A stretch of 64,000 nucleotides of DNA from Candidatus Babelota bacterium (GCA_018817025.1 JAHIUU010000006.1:251909-315908), one strand, 5' to 3'. Numbered from the stretch's first letter, positions 24,344 through 58,715 are shown. The notes: generated from the sequence alone by a model not told the origin. Program-made: numbers and translations.

Positions 24344-26074
24344 CTATATTGCTTCGTCAGGTCTTGCTGTCTGCACATCTTGTGCTGTCTGTCCTGCATG
24401 AGCAACGGATAGAACTTCTTCAATGGTGGTATCCCCTACTTTGATTCGTCGGAGGCCGTCTTCGGCTAAGGTTTTCATTCCTTCTTTGATGGCTTGTGCT
24501 TTGATCACTGAAGCGTCGACTTTTTGAACAATCAATCGAGCGAGAGCATCGCTTATTTCCATTACCTCAAAGATCGCAAGTCGCCCCTTATAGCCTGTCT
24601 GTAGGCAGTCGTCGCAGCCGATCGCTTTGTAGAAGATTGTTTTGGCCGCTTGTTGTTGTGTGACGCCTATCCGAGCAATCATTTCTGGAGTTGGTTGATA
24701 TGGCTGTTTGCATTTGTCGCACAACCGTCTGACTAGTCGTTGTGACATGATACAGACGACTGACGATGCGATCAAAAACGGTTCAATATCCATGTCGATC
24801 AATCGGGTAATCGTTGCCGGCGCGCTGTTGGTGTGGATTGTACTTAGGACGAGGTGGCCTGTTAATGCTGCTTGAGTTGCGATTTGTGCGGTTTCGGTAT
24901 CTCGAATTTCTCCGATCAGTACGATGTCTGGATCTTGACGAAGGATGGATCGAAGTGCTGTTGCAAACGTTAGGCCGACGCTATCTTTTACCTGTACCTG
25001 ACTAATCCCTTGAATGGTATATTCGACCGGATCTTCAACGGTAATGATGTTAACATCTGGTTTGTTTAATCGATCTAAAATTGAATAGAGCGTTGTCGTT
25101 TTACCTGAACCGGTTGGGCCACTAACTAGGATAATGCCGTTCGGCCTTTCGATATTGATGGAGAGGATCTTGTGATCGTATTCGGTCATTTTGAGTTTTT
25201 CGAGTTTTACAACCCCTTTTGTTTTGTCGAGCAGACGCATGACGACTCGCTCACCAAAGTTGCATGGCAAGACTGAGACTCGAATATCGATTGCTTTGTC
25301 GGCAACCTTGATTAGGATTCTTCCATCCTGAGGGACTCTTTTTTCTGCGATGTTTAGGTTTGACATGATTTTTATTCTGGAAACGATTGCGCCCTGATAT
25401 CGTTTTGGTGGGAGAAGTCGCTCGTACATGATACCGTCAATTCGGTATCGTACGCGTAGTTCTTTTTCAAACGGTTCGATATGAATATCGGATGCAGCTT
25501 CTTTGACTGCCTGGAATAAGATGTGATTGACGAGTTTAACGATCGGTGCTTCATTTGCCATCTCCATGATGTCTTTTTCTTCGATTGCACCGAGCTCGAA
25601 CTCTTCTTCTTCTTCGGCGAGTTCTTCCATCATTTCTTTGCTTGTTTCAAGCGGATAGTATTTATTGATCGCTGCAGTTATTGCGGTGTCAGTTGAAACG
25701 GCGCAACTGACGTCTCCCTCCATGAGCAGGGCGAGATCGTCAAGCGGTTGTAGATCTCGAGGGTTTGCGGTTAGAATTGTTTTTTCTCCCTCGAACATAA
25801 TCGGAATGACGACATGTTGTCGTAAAAATTTGAGAGGGATTCTACCAAGTATTTTTGTGTCGATCATTTGTTCGGTGATTTTTTCAACGAAAGTGATGCC
25901 GACCTGGACTGCAAGTGCGTTAGCGATCTGGTTTTTTGAGACCAAACCTAATTTGAGGAGTGTTTCTCCAATAAGGCCACCTGACTTTTTTTTCTCCTGA
26001 CGGCCCTTTTCGAGTTGTTCCTGTGTGATTGCCCCTTGTTCGACCAAGATTTCACCAAATTTCTTTTTTAACAT
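24344..26074 (-). CDS. GspE/PilB-type secretion/pilus assembly ATPase
   Basis: ASDIHIEP, PQDGR, GPTGSGKTTT, EDPVEY, LRQDPD...GEIRD, TGHLVLSTIH, CxxC...CxxC; MshEN-like N-terminus. Confidence 0.95.
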   Translation of the reverse strand: MLKKKFGEILVEQGAITQEQLEKGRQEKKKSGGLIGETLLKLGLVSKNQIANALAVQVGITFVEKITEQMIDTKILGRIPLKFLRQHVVIPIMFEGEKTILTANPRDLQPLDDLALLMEGDVSCAVSTDTAITAAINKYYPLETSKEMMEELAEEEEEFELGAIEEKDIMEMANEAPIVKLVNHILFQAVKEAASDIHIEPFEKELRVRYRIDGIMYERLLPPKRYQGAIVSRIKIMSNLNIAEKRVPQDGRILIKVADKAIDIRVSVLPCNFGERVVMRLLDKTKGVVKLEKLKMTEYDHKILSINIERPNGIILVSGPTGSGKTTTLYSILDRLNKPDVNIITVEDPVEYTIQGISQVQVKDSVGLTFATALRSILRQDPDIVLIGEIRDTETAQIATQAALTGHLVLSTIHTNSAPATITRLIDMDIEPFLIASSVVCIMSQRLVRRLCDKCKQPYQPTPEMIARIGVTQQQAAKTIFYKAIGCDDCLQTGYKGRLAIFEVMEISDALARLIVQKVDASVIKAQAIKEGMKTLAEDGLRRIKVGDTTIEEVLSVAHAGQTAQDVQTARPDEAI

Positions 26075-27971: not shown

Positions 27972-28009
27972 AAAAAAAGAGGCTGTCTCTAAAGACAGCC
28001 TCTTTTTTT
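27972..28009. terminator. Bidirectional terminator
   Basis: Perfect 17-bp stem AAAAAAAGAGGCTGTCT-ctaa-AGACAGCCTCTTTTTTT between convergent genes. Confidence 0.92.
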
Positions 28010-28010
28010 C

Positions 28011-28322
28011 TTATTTCTTGTCGATTAGCCAGTTGTAGAGCCAAGCGAAAAACCATACGGTTATAAAGGTCGCAACAAATACGATTATGATTTTTCCAAA
28101 CGGGTAGTACCATGGACATGTGGTAGGAATTGTTTCTTCTAGCGTTGTTGGAAAGTGCTTTACGCCAAATCCGTGGTGATAGTGCCACATTGTTCCTCGC
28201 ATCATGCCGCGAAACATAGGCATTCTTCCGCAGAATGGTCGCCACAAAAACATTTTGACTACTTTTGCAAGTGTCATTGTTGTTGCGGCAGCAAGGGCGA
28301 ATTTATTCGTATCCAGCTTCAT
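28011..28322 (-). CDS. Small 2-TM membrane protein (DUF5676-like pattern)
   Basis: MKLDTNKFALAAA...Met/His-rich loop...VWFFAWLYNWL; RBS GGAGAGAGG. Confidence 0.7.
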   Translation of the reverse strand: MKLDTNKFALAAATTMTLAKVVKMFLWRPFCGRMPMFRGMMRGTMWHYHHGFGVKHFPTTLEETIPTTCPWYYPFGKIIIVFVATFITVWFFAWLYNWLIDKK

Positions 28323-28348: not shown

Positions 28349-29077
28349 TTAAGATTTGTTTTCGTAATCATTTGTTCCAAAATATCGGTCGCCATAGTCT
28401 CCAAGGCCTGGAACAATAAAACTTTTGTCGTTTAGTTTTATGTCAACGGCGGCGACAATGATCTTTTTTATTTTTGGAAACTTGCTGAGAATATGGTTAA
28501 TTCCAGCGGTTGCCGCAATGACGCCGACGAAAATAATATTTTCTTCTTCAGCTCCTTTTTTTATGACATAGTCTATCGTTTGGCCAGAGCTCCCGCCGGT
28601 TGCAAGCATCGGATCAAGAATGATAATCGTATCATCGGGGTTTATTTTAGGAAATTTTTCATAGTAAGTGGAAGCTTCTGCTGTTTTTTCATCTCGCTCA
28701 AGCCCGATTGTCCCTACCGTTGCTTTTTTAAAGAATTGAAGAAATGGATGAAGAAGTGTCTCGCCGGATCGTAATATTGGAACAAGAATCGTATTGTTTT
28801 TATATTCGTGACCGATTGTCGGGGCAAGCAGCGTTTCTATTTCAATCTCTTTAACGGGAATATATTTTATGGTCGCGGATGCGAGTACATAGGCAAGGTC
28901 GTCGCTTGCATCACGAAACTGGCGTATTGTTGATTCTTTTTTTCGTAGCCTGGTTACTAATTGTGGGGCTTGAACCATTTCGACTTGCGTTTGTAGGTTT
29001 TGGTTGTCCGTGTAAGCAACTGACGAGCTTGTGGCGAAAAAACTTGCGCAAAATAGAAGTGCTGTGTTTTTTTTCAT
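28349..29077 (-). CDS. upp: Uracil phosphoribosyltransferase paralog with N-terminal signal peptide
   Basis: VPILRSG, IILDPMLATGGS, IVPGLGDYGDRYFGT. RBS AAGGAG 5 nt before ATG 29077, then MKKNTALLFCASFFATSSSVA. Confidence 0.88.
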   Translation of the reverse strand: MKKNTALLFCASFFATSSSVAYTDNQNLQTQVEMVQAPQLVTRLRKKESTIRQFRDASDDLAYVLASATIKYIPVKEIEIETLLAPTIGHEYKNNTILVPILRSGETLLHPFLQFFKKATVGTIGLERDEKTAEASTYYEKFPKINPDDTIIILDPMLATGGSSGQTIDYVIKKGAEEENIIFVGVIAATAGINHILSKFPKIKKIIVAAVDIKLNDKSFIVPGLGDYGDRYFGTNDYENKS

Positions 29078-29184
29078 AGTATCTCCTTGAAACTTTAAGA
29101 GCTTCTTTTTGGGTGAAACAAATAAGTAAAAGTGTTTTGTCTGAAAAAGTTTCACAAATGAGAAGCGAAGAGTCAATCGATAAT

Positions 29185-29796
29185 TTAACCGGGAACGTCT
29201 GTGCCAAAGAAGCGATCGCCAAAGTCGCCGAGCCCTGGAATAATAAATTTTTTATTATTTAGTCTTTCGTCAATTGCTGGAACGATAATTTTTATTTTTG
29301 GAAATGCTTTCTTGATGCGTTCGAGCCCGTCAGGGGCCGCGACTATGGCTACGAAGACAATTTTTTCTTCGTGGGCACCTTTTTCTTTTAAAATGTTTAA
29401 CGCGTCAATAGCACTTCCACCTGTAGCAATCATTGGATCGAGTAATATGACGTCGTCTTGAGCGCTTAGTGGTGGCATTTTATAGTAATACAGTTCAGCG
29501 ACAGCTGTTTTTTCATCTCGCTGGAGCCCGACAAAGCCGACGGATGCTCGTTGAAAAAAATGTAAAAATGGGTTAAGCAGCGCGATGCCAGATCGAAGGA
29601 TTGGAACGAGAACGAGATTGTTTTTGAATTGACCCCCCTCTGTTTTTGCGAGTGGAGTTTCGATTGAGATGGTTTCTTGTTCTAAGAGTTGTGCTGCTTC
29701 AGCTGCGAGGATTAGACCGAGTTTTTCTGCGGCTTGTCGAAACTGTGCGATCGATGTTTTTTTATTTCTTAAAGTTGTTAGAAGGGCTTCTTTCAT
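29185..29796 (-). CDS. upp: Uracil phosphoribosyltransferase
   Basis: LVPILRSG, LLDPMIATGGS, FIIPGLGDFGDRFFGT. Confidence 0.95.
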   Translation of the reverse strand: MKEALLTTLRNKKTSIAQFRQAAEKLGLILAAEAAQLLEQETISIETPLAKTEGGQFKNNLVLVPILRSGIALLNPFLHFFQRASVGFVGLQRDEKTAVAELYYYKMPPLSAQDDVILLDPMIATGGSAIDALNILKEKGAHEEKIVFVAIVAAPDGLERIKKAFPKIKIIVPAIDERLNNKKFIIPGLGDFGDRFFGTDVPG

Positions 29797-30023
29797 AGGT
29801 TTTCCTGTTTTTGTTGTGCTAATGTTCTATGTATTGACGCGAGAAGCCATACGATGATTAGCGTGAATAGAAAGAGCAGGACGAATTTAAGAATGGGCGA
29901 TCCCCATGGCCATGTGCCATTGATATAGAGCGTGCTTTCTGGTGGGGGCGTTGGAATAAAGGCGAAAAAAAATGTTATAGATGTTGCGATTAGAAACGGG
30001 AACTTGATAGGATAAAACTTCAC
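29793..30023 (-). CDS. Small 2-TM membrane protein, translationally coupled to upp
   Basis: GTG start with RBS GAGGAG; its stop overlaps the upp ATG (ATGA). The C-terminal helix resembles that of 28011..28322. Confidence 0.7.
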   Translation of the reverse strand: MKFYPIKFPFLIATSITFFFAFIPTPPPESTLYINGTWPWGSPILKFVLLFLFTLIIVWLLASIHRTLAQQKQENL

Positions 30024-30183: not shown

Positions 30184-31311
30184 ATGTCTTTGACATATGC
30201 GCACTTTGTTATGGTGTTACTGTTTTGTTGTAGGGTCATGGTGGCTGGCGATATGAAATTTAAAAAGAGTGTGTATGGGGAACCAGTTTGTGGGCAAGGT
30301 TCGTTTTTTCTGGTTGGTAATATTGGAGGGACAAACGCGCGTTTTGCGCTTGCTCAGGTTAGGGATTCAGGATTTAGTCTAATCGCGTTATTTCAGGGTG
30401 ATAGTAAGCAGATTTCAAGGTTTCATTTGGCCGTAGATCAGATTCTTTCTACGATAAAAAATGATTATGATATTGTTGTCAGTCAAGCATGTTTTGCTGT
30501 TGCTGGTTTAGTTTCTCAAGGGCGTGATTACTGTCGAATGACCAATTTGTCGTGGGATATTGATACGAAACTTTTGATTGAGCAGACATCGCTCGTGAGC
30601 GTTGTGTTGCTCAACGATTTTGAGGCCGTTGGTTATGGTATTGAGGGGCTTTCTGAGTACGAGCTTCAATCTCTTACCCCAACAAAAAAAACATTTGGTA
30701 TTGCAAACAAAGCTATCATAGGTGCTGGAACAGGTCTGGGTAAGAGTGTTCTTATTTGGAATGAGCTTCAAAAAGAGTATGTTGTTGTTGCAACGGAGGG
30801 GGGTAGTGCAGACTTTCCGGCTTATGATAGCGAAGAGTTAGCGTTGATTAGTTTTATTCGTCGGTCGCAGGTTGGTTCCCAAGATGTTTGTTTCGAGCAT
30901 CTTCTTTCTGGTCGTGGAATTCAGAATATTTATAAGTTTTTATGTGAAGAGAAAAAAGTAGCGTCTTCTTGCGAGAAAAAGATTCGGGAGAGTAATTGTG
31001 ATCCTAAGGTAATCGCGGCATGTCAGGCAGATGATTTGTGTTGCAAAAAGACGTTTGAGTATTTCGTAACGTTTTATGGTCGGTGTGCACGAAATTTTGC
31101 CCTTGAAACTCTTGCACTCGGGGGGGTGTATATCGCCGGAGGGATTGCTCTGAGCAATCTTGATTTATTTAGAAGCGGTTCTTTTTTGTCTGAATTCTAT
31201 CGAAATCAAACGTTTAGAAGCATGCTTCAGAATATTCCCGTTTCGATAATTACCAGCCCCCACGTAGAGCTCTACGGCGCTATTTTATTTGGTCGTCGTG
31301 CTATTTTGTAA
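30184..31311 (+). CDS. glk: Glucokinase (Glk)-like protein with hydrophobic N-terminal extension and altered motifs
   Basis: GNIGGTNARF, MTNL.W, LNDFEA, GAGTGLG, TEGG, E.LLSG.G, GGVYIAGG; RBS AAGGAG. Confidence 0.8.
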   Translation: MSLTYAHFVMVLLFCCRVMVAGDMKFKKSVYGEPVCGQGSFFLVGNIGGTNARFALAQVRDSGFSLIALFQGDSKQISRFHLAVDQILSTIKNDYDIVVSQACFAVAGLVSQGRDYCRMTNLSWDIDTKLLIEQTSLVSVVLLNDFEAVGYGIEGLSEYELQSLTPTKKTFGIANKAIIGAGTGLGKSVLIWNELQKEYVVVATEGGSADFPAYDSEELALISFIRRSQVGSQDVCFEHLLSGRGIQNIYKFLCEEKKVASSCEKKIRESNCDPKVIAACQADDLCCKKTFEYFVTFYGRCARNFALETLALGGVYIAGGIALSNLDLFRSGSFLSEFYRNQTFRSMLQNIPVSIITSPHVELYGAILFGRRAIL

Positions 31312-42073: not shown

Positions 42074-44542
42074 ATGATATTAACTGAAATGTTAAAAGAT
42101 AACGCAAGCGAGTATCCAGATAGTCCTGCCCTAACAATGAAAATGGGGTTTCGTACCGTTACCCTGACATACAAGCAAGCGTACGATGCTTCTCGTCAGG
42201 TCGCGTTGCTGCTTAATTGTGAGGGTGTGAAGAAGGGTGATGCTGTTTTGCTGCTTGCGCCAAACTCCCCTTACTGGATTTGCACGTTTTGGGGATGTAT
42301 GCTTGCAGGTGTCGTTGTTGTGCCGCTCAATGTGCAGAGTACGCCCAAGCTGGTTGAAAAAATTGCCAAGCAGGTCGATGCGAAGTTGTTTTTTGCTCAT
42401 CGATATTATCGATACGATTTACCCGGTGAGATTAATCGATACGATGTTGACCTACTTCCTGAGCATCTAAAATCGTTTAAGCCTGATCGATTCGAAGCGT
42501 TATTCGTAGATGAAAACGATCTTGTTGAAATCTTGTACACCTCTGGAACGACTGGCGATCCGAAGGGGGTATTGCTTACCCACAAAAATTTATATTCAAA
42601 TGTTGCTGCGATTTCAAAATTGGTGTCGCTTGAGTTTGGTAAAGAACGGTTACTTTCTATTTTGCCGTTAAGCCATATTTTTGAACAGGCCGGCATGCTG
42701 CTTGCGTTTCATTACCGGGCACATACGATTTATGCCCACTCTCACGCGGCTATTCGCGATCTTCTTCAGGGATATAGCGTTACAAAAATGCTCGCTGTCC
42801 CTGAGTTTCTAAAGATTTTGATGGGAAGAATAGAAGGTGCGTTTGCTGAGCGTGGTAAAATAAATCTTTTTAAAAAGCTTGTGCGTTTTTCGCTTAAACT
42901 TCCCGGAAAAAAAATCTCGCGCTTATTATTTTATATGGTGCATAAAAAATTGGGTGGCAAGTTGGACACGATTGTTTCTGGTGGAGCTCCGCTTGATCCA
43001 GAATTAGAGCGCAAATGGAACGCCTTGGGAGTTGCGTTGTTTCAGGGGTACGGTCTTACCGAGACGTCGCCGCTGATAGCTTGTAATACATATGACGATC
43101 ACAGATTTGGATCCGTTGGTCGCGTCGTGCCAGGTGTCCAAGTTAGACTTTCTGAGCAAGGGGAGATTCAGGTTCGTGGGCCGAGTGTGTTTTCTGGTTA
43201 CTTTAAAAATAAAGAAAAAACAAAAGAAGCGTTTACTCGTGACGGTTGGTTTAGGACAGGTGATGTGGGCGAGTTTGACCAGAATAAATTTCTTTTTTTA
43301 AAGGGGCGAAGGAAATATATGATTGTTGGCCCCGGTGGCCAGAACGTATTTCCCGAAGATATCGAAGAGATTATTAATAGTTTTGAGGTGGTGCTAGATT
43401 GTACTGTTGTTGGTATTGAGCAGGCGAGTGGCATGGTTGAAATCCATGCGGTCTTGCTCAGGCCACAGGGAGATGTGGCGGCTATTATTGCGCGAGCGAA
43501 TGAGCGGCTTGCTTCCTATCAGCAGGTTACCGGTTTTTCGGTTTGGCCAGAAGAAGACTTCCCACGGTCTGCGACGAAGAAAGTAAAAAAAGATGAGGTA
43601 ATAAGATTTTTACTTTCTCAAAAAGGAGAGAACGGAGTTGTGACGAGTGGGGGGAATGTGGCCCCGGTTGTTTTGCTTCTTGCACGGGTGACTGGCGTAG
43701 CAAGTTCACGGATAACTCCTGAAACAAGCTTTGCTAAGCTCCATATAGATTCACTTCTGCGTGTTGAGTTGATTGCTCGGATTGAGGAGCAGTTTGAGAT
43801 TTTGCTTGACGAAGCGAAGTTGACGAGTCAAACAACGGTTGAGCAACTTGAAAAAATGATTTGTGAACGTGAGACGGTTAAAGCACTTGCGCCGTTGTCA
43901 TGGTGGCCTCGATTATGGTGGGCTAGAGGGATTCGTGAGGTTGGTCAATGGTTAGTTTTTCTTTTGATGCGCATATTTATTAAGCTCCAAGTTAAGGGGA
44001 TAGAAAATCTCAATGGACTGTCTTTACCAGTTGTTTTTATGCCAAATCATCTATCCTATTTTGATCCGATGATTTTGGTGGCGGCGTTGCCTAGAAAGGT
44101 TGGTCGACACGTTGCGTTTGCGGCTGCAAATGACATGCTCTATGGAAGTTACCGGTGGTTTGCTGGCTTTGCAGAGCTTTTATTAAATGCGTTTCCGTTT
44201 CCAAGGCGTGAGGGTGAAAACGTGAAGCTTGGACTTGATTATATGGGGCGGATTTTGGATGAAGATTTTTCGGTTGGTGTATTTCCCGAAGGGAAAGTGA
44301 GTGAGACCGGTGAGCTTTTGCCTTTAAAGAAGGGGGCCGGTCTTGTTGCGATTGAGATGCGAGTGCCCGTTGTACCGGTTTATATCGAAGGAAGTCAGGA
44401 AGTCTTTCCGTACTTTACTTTGTTTCCTAGAAAGCGGGGAACGGTAACGGTGACGTTTGGAAAGCCTATAATGTTTAAGCCTACAGAATCATATGTTGCT
44501 GCGACTGAGCAGATAGAAGAAGCGTTGAAAGAGCTTTCCTAA
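42074..44542 (+). CDS. Tri-domain AMP-dependent acyl ligase - acyl carrier protein - lysophospholipid acyltransferase (PlsC-like)
   Basis: YTSGTTGDPKG, GYGLTE, WFRTGD, KKVKK; ACP motif IDSLLRVELIARIEEQF; PNHLSYFD and VFPEG acyltransferase motifs. Confidence 0.9.
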   Translation: MILTEMLKDNASEYPDSPALTMKMGFRTVTLTYKQAYDASRQVALLLNCEGVKKGDAVLLLAPNSPYWICTFWGCMLAGVVVVPLNVQSTPKLVEKIAKQVDAKLFFAHRYYRYDLPGEINRYDVDLLPEHLKSFKPDRFEALFVDENDLVEILYTSGTTGDPKGVLLTHKNLYSNVAAISKLVSLEFGKERLLSILPLSHIFEQAGMLLAFHYRAHTIYAHSHAAIRDLLQGYSVTKMLAVPEFLKILMGRIEGAFAERGKINLFKKLVRFSLKLPGKKISRLLFYMVHKKLGGKLDTIVSGGAPLDPELERKWNALGVALFQGYGLTETSPLIACNTYDDHRFGSVGRVVPGVQVRLSEQGEIQVRGPSVFSGYFKNKEKTKEAFTRDGWFRTGDVGEFDQNKFLFLKGRRKYMIVGPGGQNVFPEDIEEIINSFEVVLDCTVVGIEQASGMVEIHAVLLRPQGDVAAIIARANERLASYQQVTGFSVWPEEDFPRSATKKVKKDEVIRFLLSQKGENGVVTSGGNVAPVVLLLARVTGVASSRITPETSFAKLHIDSLLRVELIARIEEQFEILLDEAKLTSQTTVEQLEKMICERETVKALAPLSWWPRLWWARGIREVGQWLVFLLMRIFIKLQVKGIENLNGLSLPVVFMPNHLSYFDPMILVAALPRKVGRHVAFAAANDMLYGSYRWFAGFAELLLNAFPFPRREGENVKLGLDYMGRILDEDFSVGVFPEGKVSETGELLPLKKGAGLVAIEMRVPVVPVYIEGSQEVFPYFTLFPRKRGTVTVTFGKPIMFKPTESYVAATEQIEEALKELS

Positions 44543-44553
44543 CGACAATTACT

Positions 44554-45930
44554 CTAGGTATTGTTTTTTTGTTTGTCGATTATTACTTCTGGGTTTCCAA
44601 TAATTTTGTTTTTCTCTACAAGCTTGTGATGTTTGACGCTCACAAACCGTGCCACAATAGCCCAAAAGGAAACGATGGTAAGCAGAATAGGGGCTGAGTA
44701 GCCTATCGTTTGAATTGGTGAGAAGTTTCTAAACAGGGCGTTGATTCCTGCGCCGGCTCCTTTAATCGATCGAATGCCGAAGACGTCGATCCATCCCTTT
44801 GTTTTAAATTTGACGTCTCGTGTTGTAGGGATATAAAGAATTTCTTTAGCAGGGTTGTTTAGCGCGTACGAGAGCCCTTTCAAAATAATCATAGAGGTGA
44901 AAACGATTGGGAGAACGGGAAATATTCGTACGCCGCATATGACAAGACCGGTTGCGATTGGAAAGAAGAGAAGACAAATTCTTAGGCCAAGTGTGCGCAG
45001 GAAAAAACTTGTTCCCACCAAAGCAAAGACGAGTGTCAGGCTGTTTGCCATCATGCCGTATCGAGCGTAAAACGCGGCAAAAGCCTCTTTGGTTGGGTAG
45101 GTATGATGAGCGAGTAGGTTCATCTGAAATTCCAGCATGGTTCCAATTATTTCATATCCCGTCGTAACGACAAAAATGCCAAGAAGATAAGGGTTGGTTA
45201 TTAACAGTCGTAAACCTTCGAAAAAACCTGTTTTTGGCTGGTTGACTCGGAAGAATGGAGTATCTACAAGGTCGCTTTTTTGTTCTATTGATTGGTTGAT
45301 AATAAATGGAACAAGGGCTATGCAAAAGCTTGCGATTGTAATCATAATTGGCAGGCCCAATGTTTGCGAGTAGTTTGCGACAAGAATCGTGCCGCTGATC
45401 GTGCCGACCTGCGTTATGGTAAGGATCATTCCGTATCCTCGTTTTGCCTCGTCAGTTTTAGTTTGACTTGCGACAAAAGACCAAAACAGTGCAGGGGCAA
45501 GCGCCCCAAAACTTTCGATGATAACATAGCTTACCCAGCCGACAATACTTCCTGGGAGCCAGTAAAGAAATGGAAATAGCGTGTATGCAAGTGATATGAA
45601 AGAATTTTGTGGGTACGCGACAAGGAATGCGATTCCTAAGAACATTGAAATATAGAATGAGTAGATGACGAAGAAAAGCTTCTCTTTTTTGAACAGGTCG
45701 ATCAGTTTGCTATAAATGAGAACGAGAGGGATGATAAGAAGAAACGATGCGATTTTGCCCCATGGCTGCCATCGTACTCCGACCATGTCGATAAATATTG
45801 CTTCTCGTATTCCTCGAAGCATCCAGTATGGTCCTATGGTGAGCATGAGTGCCAAAGAAAACAGTCCAAATTTTTTTAGTTCCGAGACACTCAAATCACC
45901 CCATATAATTCTAAGGGGCTTTGGCAACAC
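44554..45930 (-). CDS. Nucleotide transporter, NTT/TLC (ATP/ADP translocase-like)
   Basis: WGDL...E.KKF, YW.LR, FWSF, NP.KEILYIPT.RDVKFK.KGWIDVFG.R..K. Confidence 0.88.
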   Translation of the reverse strand: MLPKPLRIIWGDLSVSELKKFGLFSLALMLTIGPYWMLRGIREAIFIDMVGVRWQPWGKIASFLLIIPLVLIYSKLIDLFKKEKLFFVIYSFYISMFLGIAFLVAYPQNSFISLAYTLFPFLYWLPGSIVGWVSYVIIESFGALAPALFWSFVASQTKTDEAKRGYGMILTITQVGTISGTILVANYSQTLGLPIMITIASFCIALVPFIINQSIEQKSDLVDTPFFRVNQPKTGFFEGLRLLITNPYLLGIFVVTTGYEIIGTMLEFQMNLLAHHTYPTKEAFAAFYARYGMMANSLTLVFALVGTSFFLRTLGLRICLLFFPIATGLVICGVRIFPVLPIVFTSMIILKGLSYALNNPAKEILYIPTTRDVKFKTKGWIDVFGIRSIKGAGAGINALFRNFSPIQTIGYSAPILLTIVSFWAIVARFVSVKHHKLVEKNKIIGNPEVIIDKQKNNT

Positions 45931-55846: not shown

Positions 55847-57184
55847 GTGATGGGACAAAGGTTAATTCGGGCGTTATGGGGAGACCTGAGTAAAGAGGAA
55901 CTTAAGAAGTTTTCGCTTCTTGCAGTTGGCTTTTTTTTGTTGATTGGCTCCTACTGGCCACTCAAAATTTTAAAAGATGTGGTCTTTATCAACATGATTG
56001 GAAGTAAGTACCAGCCAGATGCAAAGATTTTGTCGCTGATACTTTTTTTTCCACTTGTTCTGTTTTACTCTCGTCTTGTCGATTACTTCTCGAAAGAAAA
56101 ATTAATTTATTTTTTCGTTATTATGTACGGCAGTCTTGGGTTTCTGTTCGTCTATTTCTTTTATCACCCAACGATTGGGGTTGCAAATGCTGAGCAGAGT
56201 CCCTATAGATTGCTCGGATGGCTATTTTATCTGTTTGTTGAGAGCTACATTTCTATAATGGTTTCATTATATTGGGCATTTATAAATGACGTAACGACGC
56301 CAGAGTCTGCTAAAAAGGGTTACGGCCTTCTTATTTTTGGCAGTCAGCTTGGTGCGGTTGTTTTCATTTCTATAGGTAACTATCTATCTCGTGATGTTTC
56401 ATTGTATGCGCAGCGTGTGCCATTTATTGCCCTGATGTCAGTTCTCACTTTTTTCCTGGTTGCCCTTGTCGTCTTTCTATTAACTCATGTTGTTAGTCAT
56501 GATGAACTTCAGGGATATCAGGGGACAGACAAAGGTATTGAGAAGAAGGGATCGGTAGGTTTTTTTGATGGGCTACGTGTTCTGCTTAGATTTCCGTATG
56601 TTGGTGGAATTTTTGGATTAGTATTTTTTCATGAGGTTGTTTCCGCGCTCATGCATTATCAAATGCTTCGGTTGGTAGAGGTGACCTATCTTTCGAATTC
56701 TGGGTTTGTCAATAAGTTTATGTTTGATTTTACGCTTGTTATGCAAGGTATATCCTGTTTGTTTGCCCTCTTTGGAACATCGTATTTTCAGCGAAAAATA
56801 GGAGTGAGGGGTTGCTTACTATCTTACCCAATATTGTTAGGCATAGGCGTTGTGTTTTATATTGTTAATCCGACATTATCGTTTATTGCTGGTGTTATGA
56901 TTATTGCGAAGGGAATCAACTACGTTCTCAATCAGCCGGCCAAAGAGATTTTGTATATTCCAACAACCAGGGCGATTAAGTATAAGGCTAAGGCGTGGGT
57001 GGATATGTTTGGTTTGCGTTCAGCCAAGATGGGAGGCTCTCTTGTTAATAAGTCGATAGGGTTGGCCTCGAATGTTACTGGCGGTATTTCAATACTCGTG
57101 ATAGTTTTCTGGGTTGGTCTTTCTAGGGCTATTGGTCGCAAATATCACGAGGTTGTTACGAAAGGGGATCGTATCGGGGCATAA
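55847..57184 (+). CDS. Nucleotide transporter, NTT/TLC
   Basis: LWGDL..EE.KKF, YW.LKILKD, NQPAKEILYIPT..IKYKAKAW.D.FG.R..K. Confidence 0.88.
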   Translation: MMGQRLIRALWGDLSKEELKKFSLLAVGFFLLIGSYWPLKILKDVVFINMIGSKYQPDAKILSLILFFPLVLFYSRLVDYFSKEKLIYFFVIMYGSLGFLFVYFFYHPTIGVANAEQSPYRLLGWLFYLFVESYISIMVSLYWAFINDVTTPESAKKGYGLLIFGSQLGAVVFISIGNYLSRDVSLYAQRVPFIALMSVLTFFLVALVVFLLTHVVSHDELQGYQGTDKGIEKKGSVGFFDGLRVLLRFPYVGGIFGLVFFHEVVSALMHYQMLRLVEVTYLSNSGFVNKFMFDFTLVMQGISCLFALFGTSYFQRKIGVRGCLLSYPILLGIGVVFYIVNPTLSFIAGVMIIAKGINYVLNQPAKEILYIPTTRAIKYKAKAWVDMFGLRSAKMGGSLVNKSIGLASNVTGGISILVIVFWVGLSRAIGRKYHEVVTKGDRIGA

Positions 57185-57238: not shown

Positions 57239-57341
57239 TGATCAGGAAATCAGGGAGTTTTACCTTGCGGGGGAGGACGGGCCTAGAAGTTCCTAAATTT
57301 GTATTTGTGTTTTTTTGTTTTACCGTTTCGAGGAGATGGTT

Positions 57342-58715
57342 ATGCTACGACTTGTTCGTGTTTTATGGGGTGATTTGACGAGAGATGAACTCAAGAAGTT
57401 CGGGATCTTGTCGGTTGCCATGATGTTGATTGTTGGTAACTATTGGATGTTGCGTGTAACTAAAGATGCGTTATTTGACGTCCTCGTTGGATTTCGTCAA
57501 TGGCAGCCGGTTGCAAAGATGATTTCTGTGCTCGTTATGGTTGTTGTTGTTCTTGGGTATAGTAAGCTTGTTGACATGCTCAGGCGACACCATCTTATCT
57601 ATCTGGTATGTTCTTTTTACGGGGTGACCTTTATTCTTCTCAGTTACCTTGCTACGAATCCAGAGCTTCTCGCAGTAAGTAGTACCTCCTTAATCTACCC
57701 ACTTGTGTCATGGATTCCGTCAAAGATTCCTGGTGGTGGTATTGGGTGGTTTGCCTATGTCTTTCTGGAAAGTTATGGTTCGCTTTTGATCGCAGTATTT
57801 TACTCCTTTATTGCGAGTGTTATGACAACCGGATTGGCGAAAAAGGGGTACGGTATGATGATGTCCATAACACAGTTTGGAACATTGTCTGGTGTGCTTA
57901 TCTCTATGTTTTTTGTCGAGCGAGTTGGCATTCCAATGTTGTACTTTTTTGGTGGGATCGTGGTTTTATCGGCACCGTTTATCATAAGGTACTACATATC
58001 ACAATTTCCTGAAGATATTGCCTCGACACAAGAGGCTGTTGCTGGGAAGAAAAATAAGACGGGATTTTTCGAGGGATTGCGACTTATTGCAACGCGGCCA
58101 TATATCATGGGTGTTTTTGTTGTCGTGACCGCCTATGAAATTATCTCAACTATCGTTGAGTATCAAATGAGCTGGATTGCTGTCGGGATTTATTCGCCAG
58201 AACAGTTCACTGTCTTTCGAACCTATCAGGGACTTGGAATTAACTTGCTTGCATTATTATTTGCCATTATCGGCACCAGCTTCTTCATGAGAAGACTTGG
58301 CTTGAAATTTTGTTTAATGGCGTTTCCTATTACGATAGGTGTGGTTGTGACTGCAAACTATCTTGTACGGTTGTCAGGGGCTGGAAATACCACCTTAATG
58401 TGGGTTCTTATGCTCGCAACGGTTGCGATCAAGGGTCTTAATTATGCGCTGAACAAACCAACCTCAGAAGTGATGTACATTCCAACCAGTAAAGATGTGA
58501 AATTTAAGTCAAAAGGCTGGATTGATGTTTTTGGAAATCGCTCGACCAAAGGAGTTGGTGCTACCGTGTCGAAGAGTCTGGGACACTCGCTTCCAGTCTT
58601 GTTGATGTACGGTACAATCATATCGCTTGGAATTGTTGGAGTTTGGTTATTGATAGCACAGTTTGTTGGTAATAAGTTCAACAAACTACAAGAACAGGAT
58701 GCGATTGTCGAATAA
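57342..58715 (+). CDS. Nucleotide transporter, NTT/TLC
   Basis: LWGDL..DE.KKF, YWMLRVTKD, NKP..E.MYIPT.KDVKFKSKGWIDVFG.R.TK; RBS AGGAG. Confidence 0.88.
   Translation: MLRLVRVLWGDLTRDELKKFGILSVAMMLIVGNYWMLRVTKDALFDVLVGFRQWQPVAKMISVLVMVVVVLGYSKLVDMLRRHHLIYLVCSFYGVTFILLSYLATNPELLAVSSTSLIYPLVSWIPSKIPGGGIGWFAYVFLESYGSLLIAVFYSFIASVMTTGLAKKGYGMMMSITQFGTLSGVLISMFFVERVGIPMLYFFGGIVVLSAPFIIRYYISQFPEDIASTQEAVAGKKNKTGFFEGLRLIATRPYIMGVFVVVTAYEIISTIVEYQMSWIAVGIYSPEQFTVFRTYQGLGINLLALLFAIIGTSFFMRRLGLKFCLMAFPITIGVVVTANYLVRLSGAGNTTLMWVLMLATVAIKGLNYALNKPTSEVMYIPTSKDVKFKSKGWIDVFGNRSTKGVGATVSKSLGHSLPVLLMYGTIISLGIVGVWLLIAQFVGNKFNKLQEQDAIVE

Follow-up and report, generated by a model that had tools for sequence, protein, structure and literature searches.

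An intact uracil phosphoribosyltransferase with a predicted Sec-type signal peptide in a Dependentiae bacterium, and leader-bearing relatives in Chlamydiota

Uracil phosphoribosyltransferase (UPRT, encoded by upp) is a textbook cytoplasmic enzyme that converts uracil and phosphoribosyl pyrophosphate (PRPP) to uridine monophosphate (UMP) and pyrophosphate, and PRPP is itself regarded as an intracellular metabolite. Here we describe a UPRT gene (28349..29077, minus strand) with a predicted export signal, located in a stretch of 64,000 nucleotides (nt) from Candidatus Babelota bacterium (GCA_018817025.1 JAHIUU010000006.1:251909-315908), which is referred to as the window below. The source organism was placed in the phylum Dependentiae, as a protist-parasite bacterium with two UPRT copies of which one bears a leader; its assembly comprises 1.1 Mb in 26 contigs, and its homologs are labelled Dependentiae or Babeliales. 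The best-supported reading of the sequences is that a textbook cytoplasmic enzyme has repeatedly been re-targeted for export in host-dependent bacteria. Export of some kind by the window protein appears likely, and for the full mechanism, in which a Sec-exported UPRT processed by signal peptidase I would be active on host PRPP and uracil, we estimate a probability of about 0.6.

The gene is an open reading frame (ORF) of 242 amino acids (aa), opening at ATG 29077-29075 and closing with the stop codon at 28349, and a Shine-Dalgarno (SD) sequence, AAGGAG (29083..29088, minus strand), precedes the start codon with a 5-nt spacer, 'atact'. Sequence alignments to solved UPRTs and an AlphaFold2 (AF2) model place the UPRT catalytic domain at residues 31-236 (28370..28987, minus strand), including the canonical N-terminal strand VEMVQAPQLV, and the C-terminal tail NDYENKS with the stop codon occupies 28349..28369 (minus strand). 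The protein matched the Pfam family UPRTase PF14681 over residues 36-235 (1.4e-60; 204.7 bits, cut-off 27) and NCBIfam PRK00129 (NF001097) with 188.1 bits (cut-off 114), while its score of 180.6 bits against the stricter equivalog TIGR01091 lies below the cut-off of 208.35. Sequence matches to 12 solved UPRTs were obtained with E-values from 4.5e-39 to 6e-25, the best being T. maritima 1O5O (4.5e-39), and the T. gondii UPRT chains (1UPF, 1BD3) align from residue 32 (E 4e-36). The protein retains the PRPP loop DPMLATGGS and the motifs PILRSG, RDEKT and PGLGDYGDRYFGT, each on columns without variation among 99 homologs. The PRPP-binding loop corresponds to LDPMLATGGSS at residues 154-164, with M157, A159, T160 and G162 invariant in these homologs; R103 of PILRSG, the flexible-loop residues R128, E130 and T132, as well as D212 and PGLGD-GDR are likewise invariant, and the C-terminal uracil-binding motif IVPGLGDYGDRYFGT (residues 221-235) falls on invariant columns. 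The AF2 model, based on the 99 homologs, reached a mean predicted local distance difference test (pLDDT) score of 91.4 and a predicted template modelling (pTM) score of 0.86, with alternating strands and helices as in the type I phosphoribosyltransferase (PRTase) fold. Residues 1-27 were modelled at pLDDT 57-66 and devoid of secondary structure, a strand was placed at residues 32-34, and pLDDT exceeded 94 from residue 31 onwards. All sequence criteria tested assign the window protein to the UPRT family, and it is the predicted location that differs. With its catalytic motifs intact, the protein is likely to be enzymatically active once exported.

The N-terminus of the window protein reads MKKNTALLFCASFFATSSSVA|YTD, and feature analysis of residues 1-21 (29015..29077, minus strand) points to a Sec-type signal peptide with predicted cleavage at A21|Y22. 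An n-region, MKKN, with a net charge of +2 leads into the h-region TALLFCASFFA, which contains the hydrophobic core ALLFCASFFA, and this is followed by a polar c-region, TSSSVA, holding the single (-3,-1) site of the leader, S19-V20-A21|Y22. The 15 residues after the core carry a net charge of -2, and by its length the core is too short for a transmembrane (TM) helix. Between leader and catalytic domain, a short variable linker (residues 22-30, YTDNQNLQT; 28988..29014, minus strand) was recognised by comparison with an ortholog. A lipoprotein or twin-arginine translocation (Tat) signal was considered and rejected, as neither motif is present: the lipobox [LVI][ASTVI][GAS]C is absent from the leader, whose sole Cys is C10 in LLFC with Phe at -1, and the twin-arginine motif (S/T)RRxFLK is absent from the n-region MKKNT, which contains no RR. 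Nor is a lipobox consistently found across the leader-bearing homologs. The SD sequence with its 5-nt spacer, the basic n-region, hydrophobic core and SVA site, and the intact PRPP- and uracil-binding motifs had all been pointed out in the initial annotation of this DNA, and each was found as described.

The genome also encodes components through which such a protein could be exported. Two signal peptidase I genes (TIGR02227) are located on contig C20, three secretins are present, and a GspE/PilB-type secretion ATPase of type II secretion or pilus machinery lies within the window (24344..26074, minus strand; PF00437, 4.6e-138). To our knowledge, type II secretion substrates are recognised as folded proteins and no sequence motif marks them. 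Comparative genomics has found the type II secretion system to be conserved in Dependentiae (PMC4776705).

Evidence that the leader is translated comes from the metagenomic protein P0002, which is 71% identical to the window protein over its full length and is encoded on contig L015 in the same gene order as in the window (FKBP, 202-aa upp, 245-aa leader upp, 100-aa membrane protein, VIT1, UPF0102 and YfiO/BamD); given this shared neighbourhood, P0002 is a true ortholog. On L015 a ribosome-binding site (RBS), GAGGAG, is found 7 nt before the ATG of MKKSTVLLISASLL, with an MKK start as in the window; the N-terminus of the ortholog reads MKKSTVLLISASLLTANSSAF and its frame is closed 11 codons upstream of the ATG. 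Comparison of the two genes gave proportions of nonsynonymous (pN) and synonymous (pS) differences of 0.25 and 0.74 in the 21 codons of the leader, and of 0.43 and 0.57 in residues 22-39, where a 3-residue indel was also observed, with a pN of 0.12 in the catalytic domain. Synonymous sites between the window and L015 are near saturation (pS 0.67-0.74). Judged from this comparison, the leader is translated coding sequence under purifying selection. It is not a chance product of AT-rich DNA, because it is kept in the syntenic ortholog with pN below pS and because the same properties recur in 78 UPRTs from two phyla; as a feature, the leader is also retained in clades that are only 35-50% identical to the window protein, so that the check on orthologs proposed in the initial annotation came out in favour of the leader.

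The same annotation had named an internal Met within VEMVQ (Met34; 28976..28978, minus strand), noted as lacking an obvious RBS, as a possible alternative start. We found no SD-like run upstream of Met34, where the preceding sequence is ACGCAAGTCGAA, and the only SD-like sequence is the one in front of ATG 29077, which agrees with the observation on the RBS and counts against the start itself. The L015 ortholog has IEIVS at the position of VEMVQ, with Ile instead of Met34, and the alternative internal start therefore does not exist there. A start at Met34 was rejected on these grounds together with the constraint on the leader. Upstream TTG (29176) or GTG starts, which would belong to an open frame of 275 aa, were rejected as well, since they lack an SD sequence and the ortholog frame is closed upstream.

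Leader-bearing UPRTs extend well beyond this locus. In a survey of 261 species genomes of Dependentiae, for which the upstream frames of all UPRT hits were read, 58 genomes contained any UPRT. G168 and G212 encode a leader UPRT plus a short copy elsewhere in the genome, and G029, G153, G143, G250 and G254 have no UPRT other than the leader form. Two database searches yielded about 50 further leader forms among metagenomic proteins; a related-locus search of genome contigs with the window protein returned no match. The homologs also included WP_068468783.1 from Ca. Protochlamydia phocaeensis, annotated plainly as 'uracil phosphoribosyltransferase', and a scan of 400 Chlamydiota genomes recovered UPRTs of the P0192 type in 23 of them (51-100% identity), 21 with a clear leader, the starts of the Chlamydiota leader genes having been assigned manually. 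A small control of 15 incidentally fetched UPRTs from free-living phyla (Actinomycetota, Bacillota, Pseudomonadota and Dormibacterota) contained no leader.

The pooled leader UPRTs (n=78) have a median hydrophobic core of 12 residues (range 7-20), with 18 or more residues in only two of the 78. Their N-flank has a mean net charge of +2.0 and the next 15 residues one of -1.0; in 72 of the 78 the N-flank exceeds the C-flank in positive charge, and 76 contain a (-3,-1) cleavage site. These properties are those of predicted cleavable Sec signals and not of membrane anchors or N-out tethers. Between clades the leader sequences diverge and only the physico-chemical pattern is conserved, which is typical of signal peptides. 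The leader forms differ from the short forms at the other end of the protein as well: 30/77 leader forms end in a tail of 5 aa or more (mean net charge -2.2), versus 5/73 short forms. The tails are mostly acidic (DDY-acidic or, in one clade, NDSEPxFExL), and the DDY-acidic tail is common to the window protein, L015, P0003, P0011 and L060.

Leader-bearing UPRTs are thus already in the databases under the plain enzyme name, and the new point is their predicted export. In the case of HLC07184.1 (P0190, from a G250 contig), the public annotation starts at an internal Met and gives a protein of 195 aa from which the leader is dropped, as opposed to 243 aa from other gene callers. Due to such trimmed leaders and the plain 'uracil phosphoribosyltransferase' labels, metabolic reconstructions assign these proteins to the wrong compartment.

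Two further sets of genes were encountered during the survey. Another lineage of Chlamydiota UPRTs with leaders (e.g., MKTILATLCLILCASCCSKG) comprises L122 (G271), L123 (G267), L124 (G264) and L125 (G283), from three genomes of 1.0-1.1 Mb and one of 1.3 Mb; in L122, L123 and L124 a linker of 80-110 aa separates the leader from the canonical VYVLSHPLIQHK start, and the Cys-rich leader ends of this lineage might be lipoprotein signals. In one Dependentiae genus, represented by L030 (G170) and L040 (G169), a short upp and the signal-peptide pentapeptide-repeat protein encoded upstream of it occupy a single open frame of 438-444 aa, which is either a fusion or a pair of genes with no stop codon between them.

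The number of leader origins was judged from trees of the catalytic domain only, by means of starred branches and bootstrap counts. A quick maximum likelihood (ML) tree of 171 rows showed all-leader clades and four changes of state; a second quick ML tree with Chlamydiota and outgroups (174 rows; 80 leader versus 89 short rows) showed seven changes, of which at least three are forced by starred branches. A careful tree of 70 rows gave four changes (bootstrap range 4-5) with at least two origins forced by starred branches, and a single leader origin was seen in none of its 200 bootstrap trees. On these trees the leader arose at least twice, and as the deep backbone is poorly supported, the older leader clades may go back to a common origin. 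One clade of leader forms (P0054, P0090, P0155, P0125 and L029; 100/99*) lies within a group of short forms from the same Dependentiae family, and its genes (f19-type pairs) lie directly downstream of a short upp, beside pheT and lspA; this clade represents an independent tandem duplication followed by leader gain. The copies L066 (G254) and L070 (G250), each the sole UPRT of its Dependentiae genome, nest within the Chlamydiota leader clade (100/99*), and their placement indicates gene transfer between Dependentiae and Chlamydiota.

The window leader copy groups with its L015 ortholog (99/89*), and the neighbouring short upp falls in a separate clade of short forms (100/99*). As the two copies belong to different clades, the trees do not support the view that the window pair arose by recent tandem duplication. 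The signal-less paralog noted next door in the initial annotation is indeed an adjoining leaderless upp of 203 aa, but the two do not form a recent pair, and the leader copy represents an old, separate lineage. Leader forms keep the canonical Upp N-terminal strand (QVEMVQAPQLV in the window protein, LPIVHCSFxPSKYE in the Chlamydiota type), the E. coli counterpart being KIVEVKHPLV. The Dependentiae Upps of 200-203 aa have lost this strand, and their NCBIfam matches begin at profile position 13-14.

With regard to metabolism, the lineages concerned live within eukaryotic cells and cannot make nucleotides (PMC4776705). Five genes for nucleotide transporters (NTTs) of the TLC/NTT family were identified in the genome of the window, three of them within the window itself: a candidate importer at 44554..45930 (minus strand; PF03219 match at C21:296549-297802) and two others at 55847..57184 and 57315..58715 (both plus strand; profile match and ORF). 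Two genes for PRPP synthetase (prs) are present, both leaderless, which supplies the leaderless cytoplasmic Upp with PRPP and led us to reject an exported PRPP synthetase as partner of the leader copy. A second leader-bearing, PRPP-dependent salvage enzyme was found on contig C18 of the same genome (G000; ~44000-44700, minus strand, outside the window), namely an HGPRT/XPRT-like purine PRTase that begins MKTTKSLLFIILIVGTFVTFVINK behind a GAGGA RBS and matches purine PRTase models weakly (~1e-7); given its hydrophobic core of 17 residues, its leader may be an anchor.

In the mechanism that we favor, translation would start at ATG 29077 and the Sec pathway would move the protein across the inner membrane, where signal peptidase I would cut the 21-residue leader after SVA to leave a mature enzyme of ~221 aa, soluble in the periplasm. 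Further release by the type II secretion machinery, to the vacuole or the host cytosol, may follow. The exported UPRT would condense uracil with host-derived PRPP to UMP, the PRPP arriving by the route of the host nucleotides that feed the NTTs; since host nucleotides already cross the outer membrane to reach these transporters, it is plausible that host PRPP (390 Da) reaches a periplasmic enzyme. The UMP could then be taken up by nucleotide transporters, either directly or as uridine triphosphate (UTP) after the action of host kinases, and the neighbouring leaderless Upp would serve intracellular salvage with PRPP from the two prs genes. Export and cleavage themselves, the compartment finally reached, the PRPP source and the recovery of UMP are inferred here. 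The exported copy proposed in the initial annotation is accordingly borne out to the extent that export is supported, translation from the internal Met and loss of the hydrophobic leader in orthologs both having found no support; the compartment and the fate of the product are matters on which we can only infer. Its suggestion that the enzyme might release uracil is unlikely in view of general knowledge of phosphoribosyltransferase equilibria.

Several points weigh against this mechanism. The signal-peptide scoring was rule-based on classical features, and a search for RNA evidence found the sequence only in its source DNA metagenome (groundwater). PRPP is chemically labile and its presence outside the bacterial cytoplasm is putative, and we know of no UMP importer among the characterised NTTs. 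Gene content adds to these doubts: prs is absent from G250, G254 and G207, but it is present in G029, G143, G153 and in 22/23 Chlamydiota genomes with the leader type, and cytoplasmic-type Upps also occur in genomes that lack prs (G004, G176, G210 and G211). The prediction that genomes with only a leader UPRT lack prs thus fails beyond G250, G254 and G207 and lends no general support. Because prs is present in most leader-type genomes, gene content does not indicate that external PRPP is generally required, although dependence on it is possible.

Among the alternatives that accept export, the exported UPRT could be a host metabolic effector, draining PRPP or uracil or boosting UTP and cytidine triphosphate (CTP), or a uracil/UMP-binding or moonlighting protein, instead of serving bulk UMP synthesis for uptake. 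The enrichment of acidic C-terminal tails in leader forms, the conserved type II secretion system of the phylum (PMC4776705) and the lack of a known UMP importer would all fit such a role. All catalytic columns are invariant across the leader forms, however, and together with the constraint on the catalytic domain (pN 0.12) this speaks for retained enzymology; an effector exploiting the same chemistry is still compatible with that, and we consider this alternative unlikely.

Alternatively, the leader may remain uncleaved and act as a signal anchor, in which case the UPRT would stay attached to the inner membrane and expose its catalytic domain to the periplasm, perhaps next to the transporters. 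The distribution of charges fits an N-in, C-out topology equally well, and longer cores do occur, with 20 residues in L060, 18 in L108 and 17 in the purine PRTase on C18. The window core, on the other hand, has ~11 strongly hydrophobic residues followed by a Ser-rich c-region with a good SVA|Y site, and the median core length of 12 residues and the (-3,-1) site in 76/78 leader UPRTs likewise argue for cleavage, which makes an anchor rather improbable.

Less probable is an arrangement in which the hydrophobic N-terminus holds the UPRT at the cytoplasmic face of the membrane (N-out, C-in), coupled to a uracil permease as a salvage metabolon. It would account for the leader form being the sole UPRT in several genomes that encode prs and hence have internal PRPP, but the positive-inside rule opposes it (N-flank +2.0 versus -1.0, more positive in 72/78) and the cores are too short for a membrane span. 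A mis-assigned start, with an ordinary cytoplasmic Upp translated from Met34 behind an untranslated 'leader', would yield a protein of canonical length (209 aa) and resembles the downstream start that the NCBI pipeline called for the G250 homolog HLC07184.1 (195 aa), yet it is very improbable considering the absence of an RBS compared with AAGGAG at ATG 29077, the Ile in the ortholog, a leader pN well below pS and the conservation of leader properties over 78 sequences.

If the UPRT is indeed exported and active, a conserved export signal that evolved repeatedly on an intact enzyme implies either access to host PRPP outside the bacterial cytoplasm or a role of these proteins as secreted metabolic effectors. 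It would add a step to the parasitism of host nucleotide pools by Dependentiae and environmental chlamydiae, which has hitherto been explained by NTTs alone. More broadly, it can be speculated that at least two phyla run PRPP-dependent base salvage outside the cytoplasm by means of an exported UPRT (here also a purine PRTase) and NTT capture, with repeated gain and interphylum transfer; freely diffusing bases would be converted to nucleotides in the periplasm, vacuole or host cytosol at the expense of host PRPP. We regard this wider reading as tentative and somewhat doubtful.

The genes around the leader copy form a compact minus-strand unit. The ordinary leaderless upp (203 aa; 29185..29796, minus strand; PF14681 5.9e-67, TIGR01091 218.5 bits) lies immediately upstream, is 53% identical to the leader copy and scores above the cut-off in both NCBIfam models. 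Between the two upp genes, a conserved 31-nt block, GATTGACTCTTCGCTTCTCATTTGTGAAACT (29148..29178, minus strand), is identical to L015 2488-2518 at 28/31 nt, and is thus near-identical although synonymous sites between the window and L015 differ by ~70%. This block may serve the leader copy as a promoter of its own (TTGACT, 17 nt, TGTGAAACT) or may be a regulatory site; an Rfam search of the intergenic region returned nothing meaningful. Directly 5' of the leader-upp RBS, a small hairpin, GAAGCT-CTTAA-AGTTTC (29089..29105, minus strand), is weakly suggested by comparison of two sequences, L015 having a different self-complementary sequence, AAGACCT-TTCG-AGGTCTT, at this position, and the hairpin may be involved in translation control.

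Downstream of the leader upp by 26 nt, a tail-anchored small membrane protein of 103 aa (28011..28322, minus strand) with its own RBS, AGGAGAGAGG, shares 68% identity with the product of the 100-aa gene found in the corresponding place on L015, and its gene is probably the last of the operon. A terminator-like hairpin with a 17-bp stem (27972..28009) closes the minus-strand unit. Upstream of the upp pair, another small tail-anchored membrane protein of 76 aa (29793..30023, minus strand) has its counterpart in an ORF that precedes upp202 on L015. The C-terminal TM regions of the 76-aa and 103-aa proteins are similar (36% over 36 aa), and a Pfam search returned no match for either protein. Beside the upp unit, a glucokinase-family protein (30184-31311, plus strand; PF02685 4e-79) carries ~40 extra N-terminal residues with a hydrophobic stretch, and an internal Met (MKFKK) just before the glucokinase domain could be its true start.

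An open-literature search found no paper linking UPRT with Dependentiae and none on an exported, periplasmic or secreted bacterial UPRT. The fold and the motifs PILRSG, RDExT, DPMLATGGS and PGLGDxGDR are common to the window protein and canonical bacterial Upps (T. maritima 1O5O, B. caldolyticus 1I5E and E. coli 2EHJ), and the reaction predicted for it is theirs, with UMP and pyrophosphate formed from uracil and PRPP. Canonical Upp is ~208 aa long, leaderless and cytoplasmic; the window protein is extended by a Sec-type signal of 21 aa, a linker of 9 aa and a short acidic tail. The T. gondii UPRT is likewise a salvage enzyme of an obligate intracellular parasite, but it works in the parasite cytosol and has no secretory signal. 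Extracellular precedents for PRPP-dependent or nucleotide-salvage enzymes include eNAMPT in mammals, the vacuolar NTPases of Toxoplasma and the ecto-NTPDase of Legionella; these belong to families unrelated to UPRT, and extracellular PRPP for eNAMPT is disputed. The purine PRTase on C18 is a PRPP-dependent salvage enzyme with n- and h-regions like those of the window UPRT, but it represents a different PRTase family. The Chlamydiota leader UPRTs (e.g., WP_068468783.1) share the arrangement of signal peptide, linker and full UPRT with the window protein, and differ from it in that they belong to another clade, have a linker of 20-45 aa with the conserved 'IQxNRxN...LLPIVHCSFxPSKYE' and are mostly the sole UPRT of their genomes.

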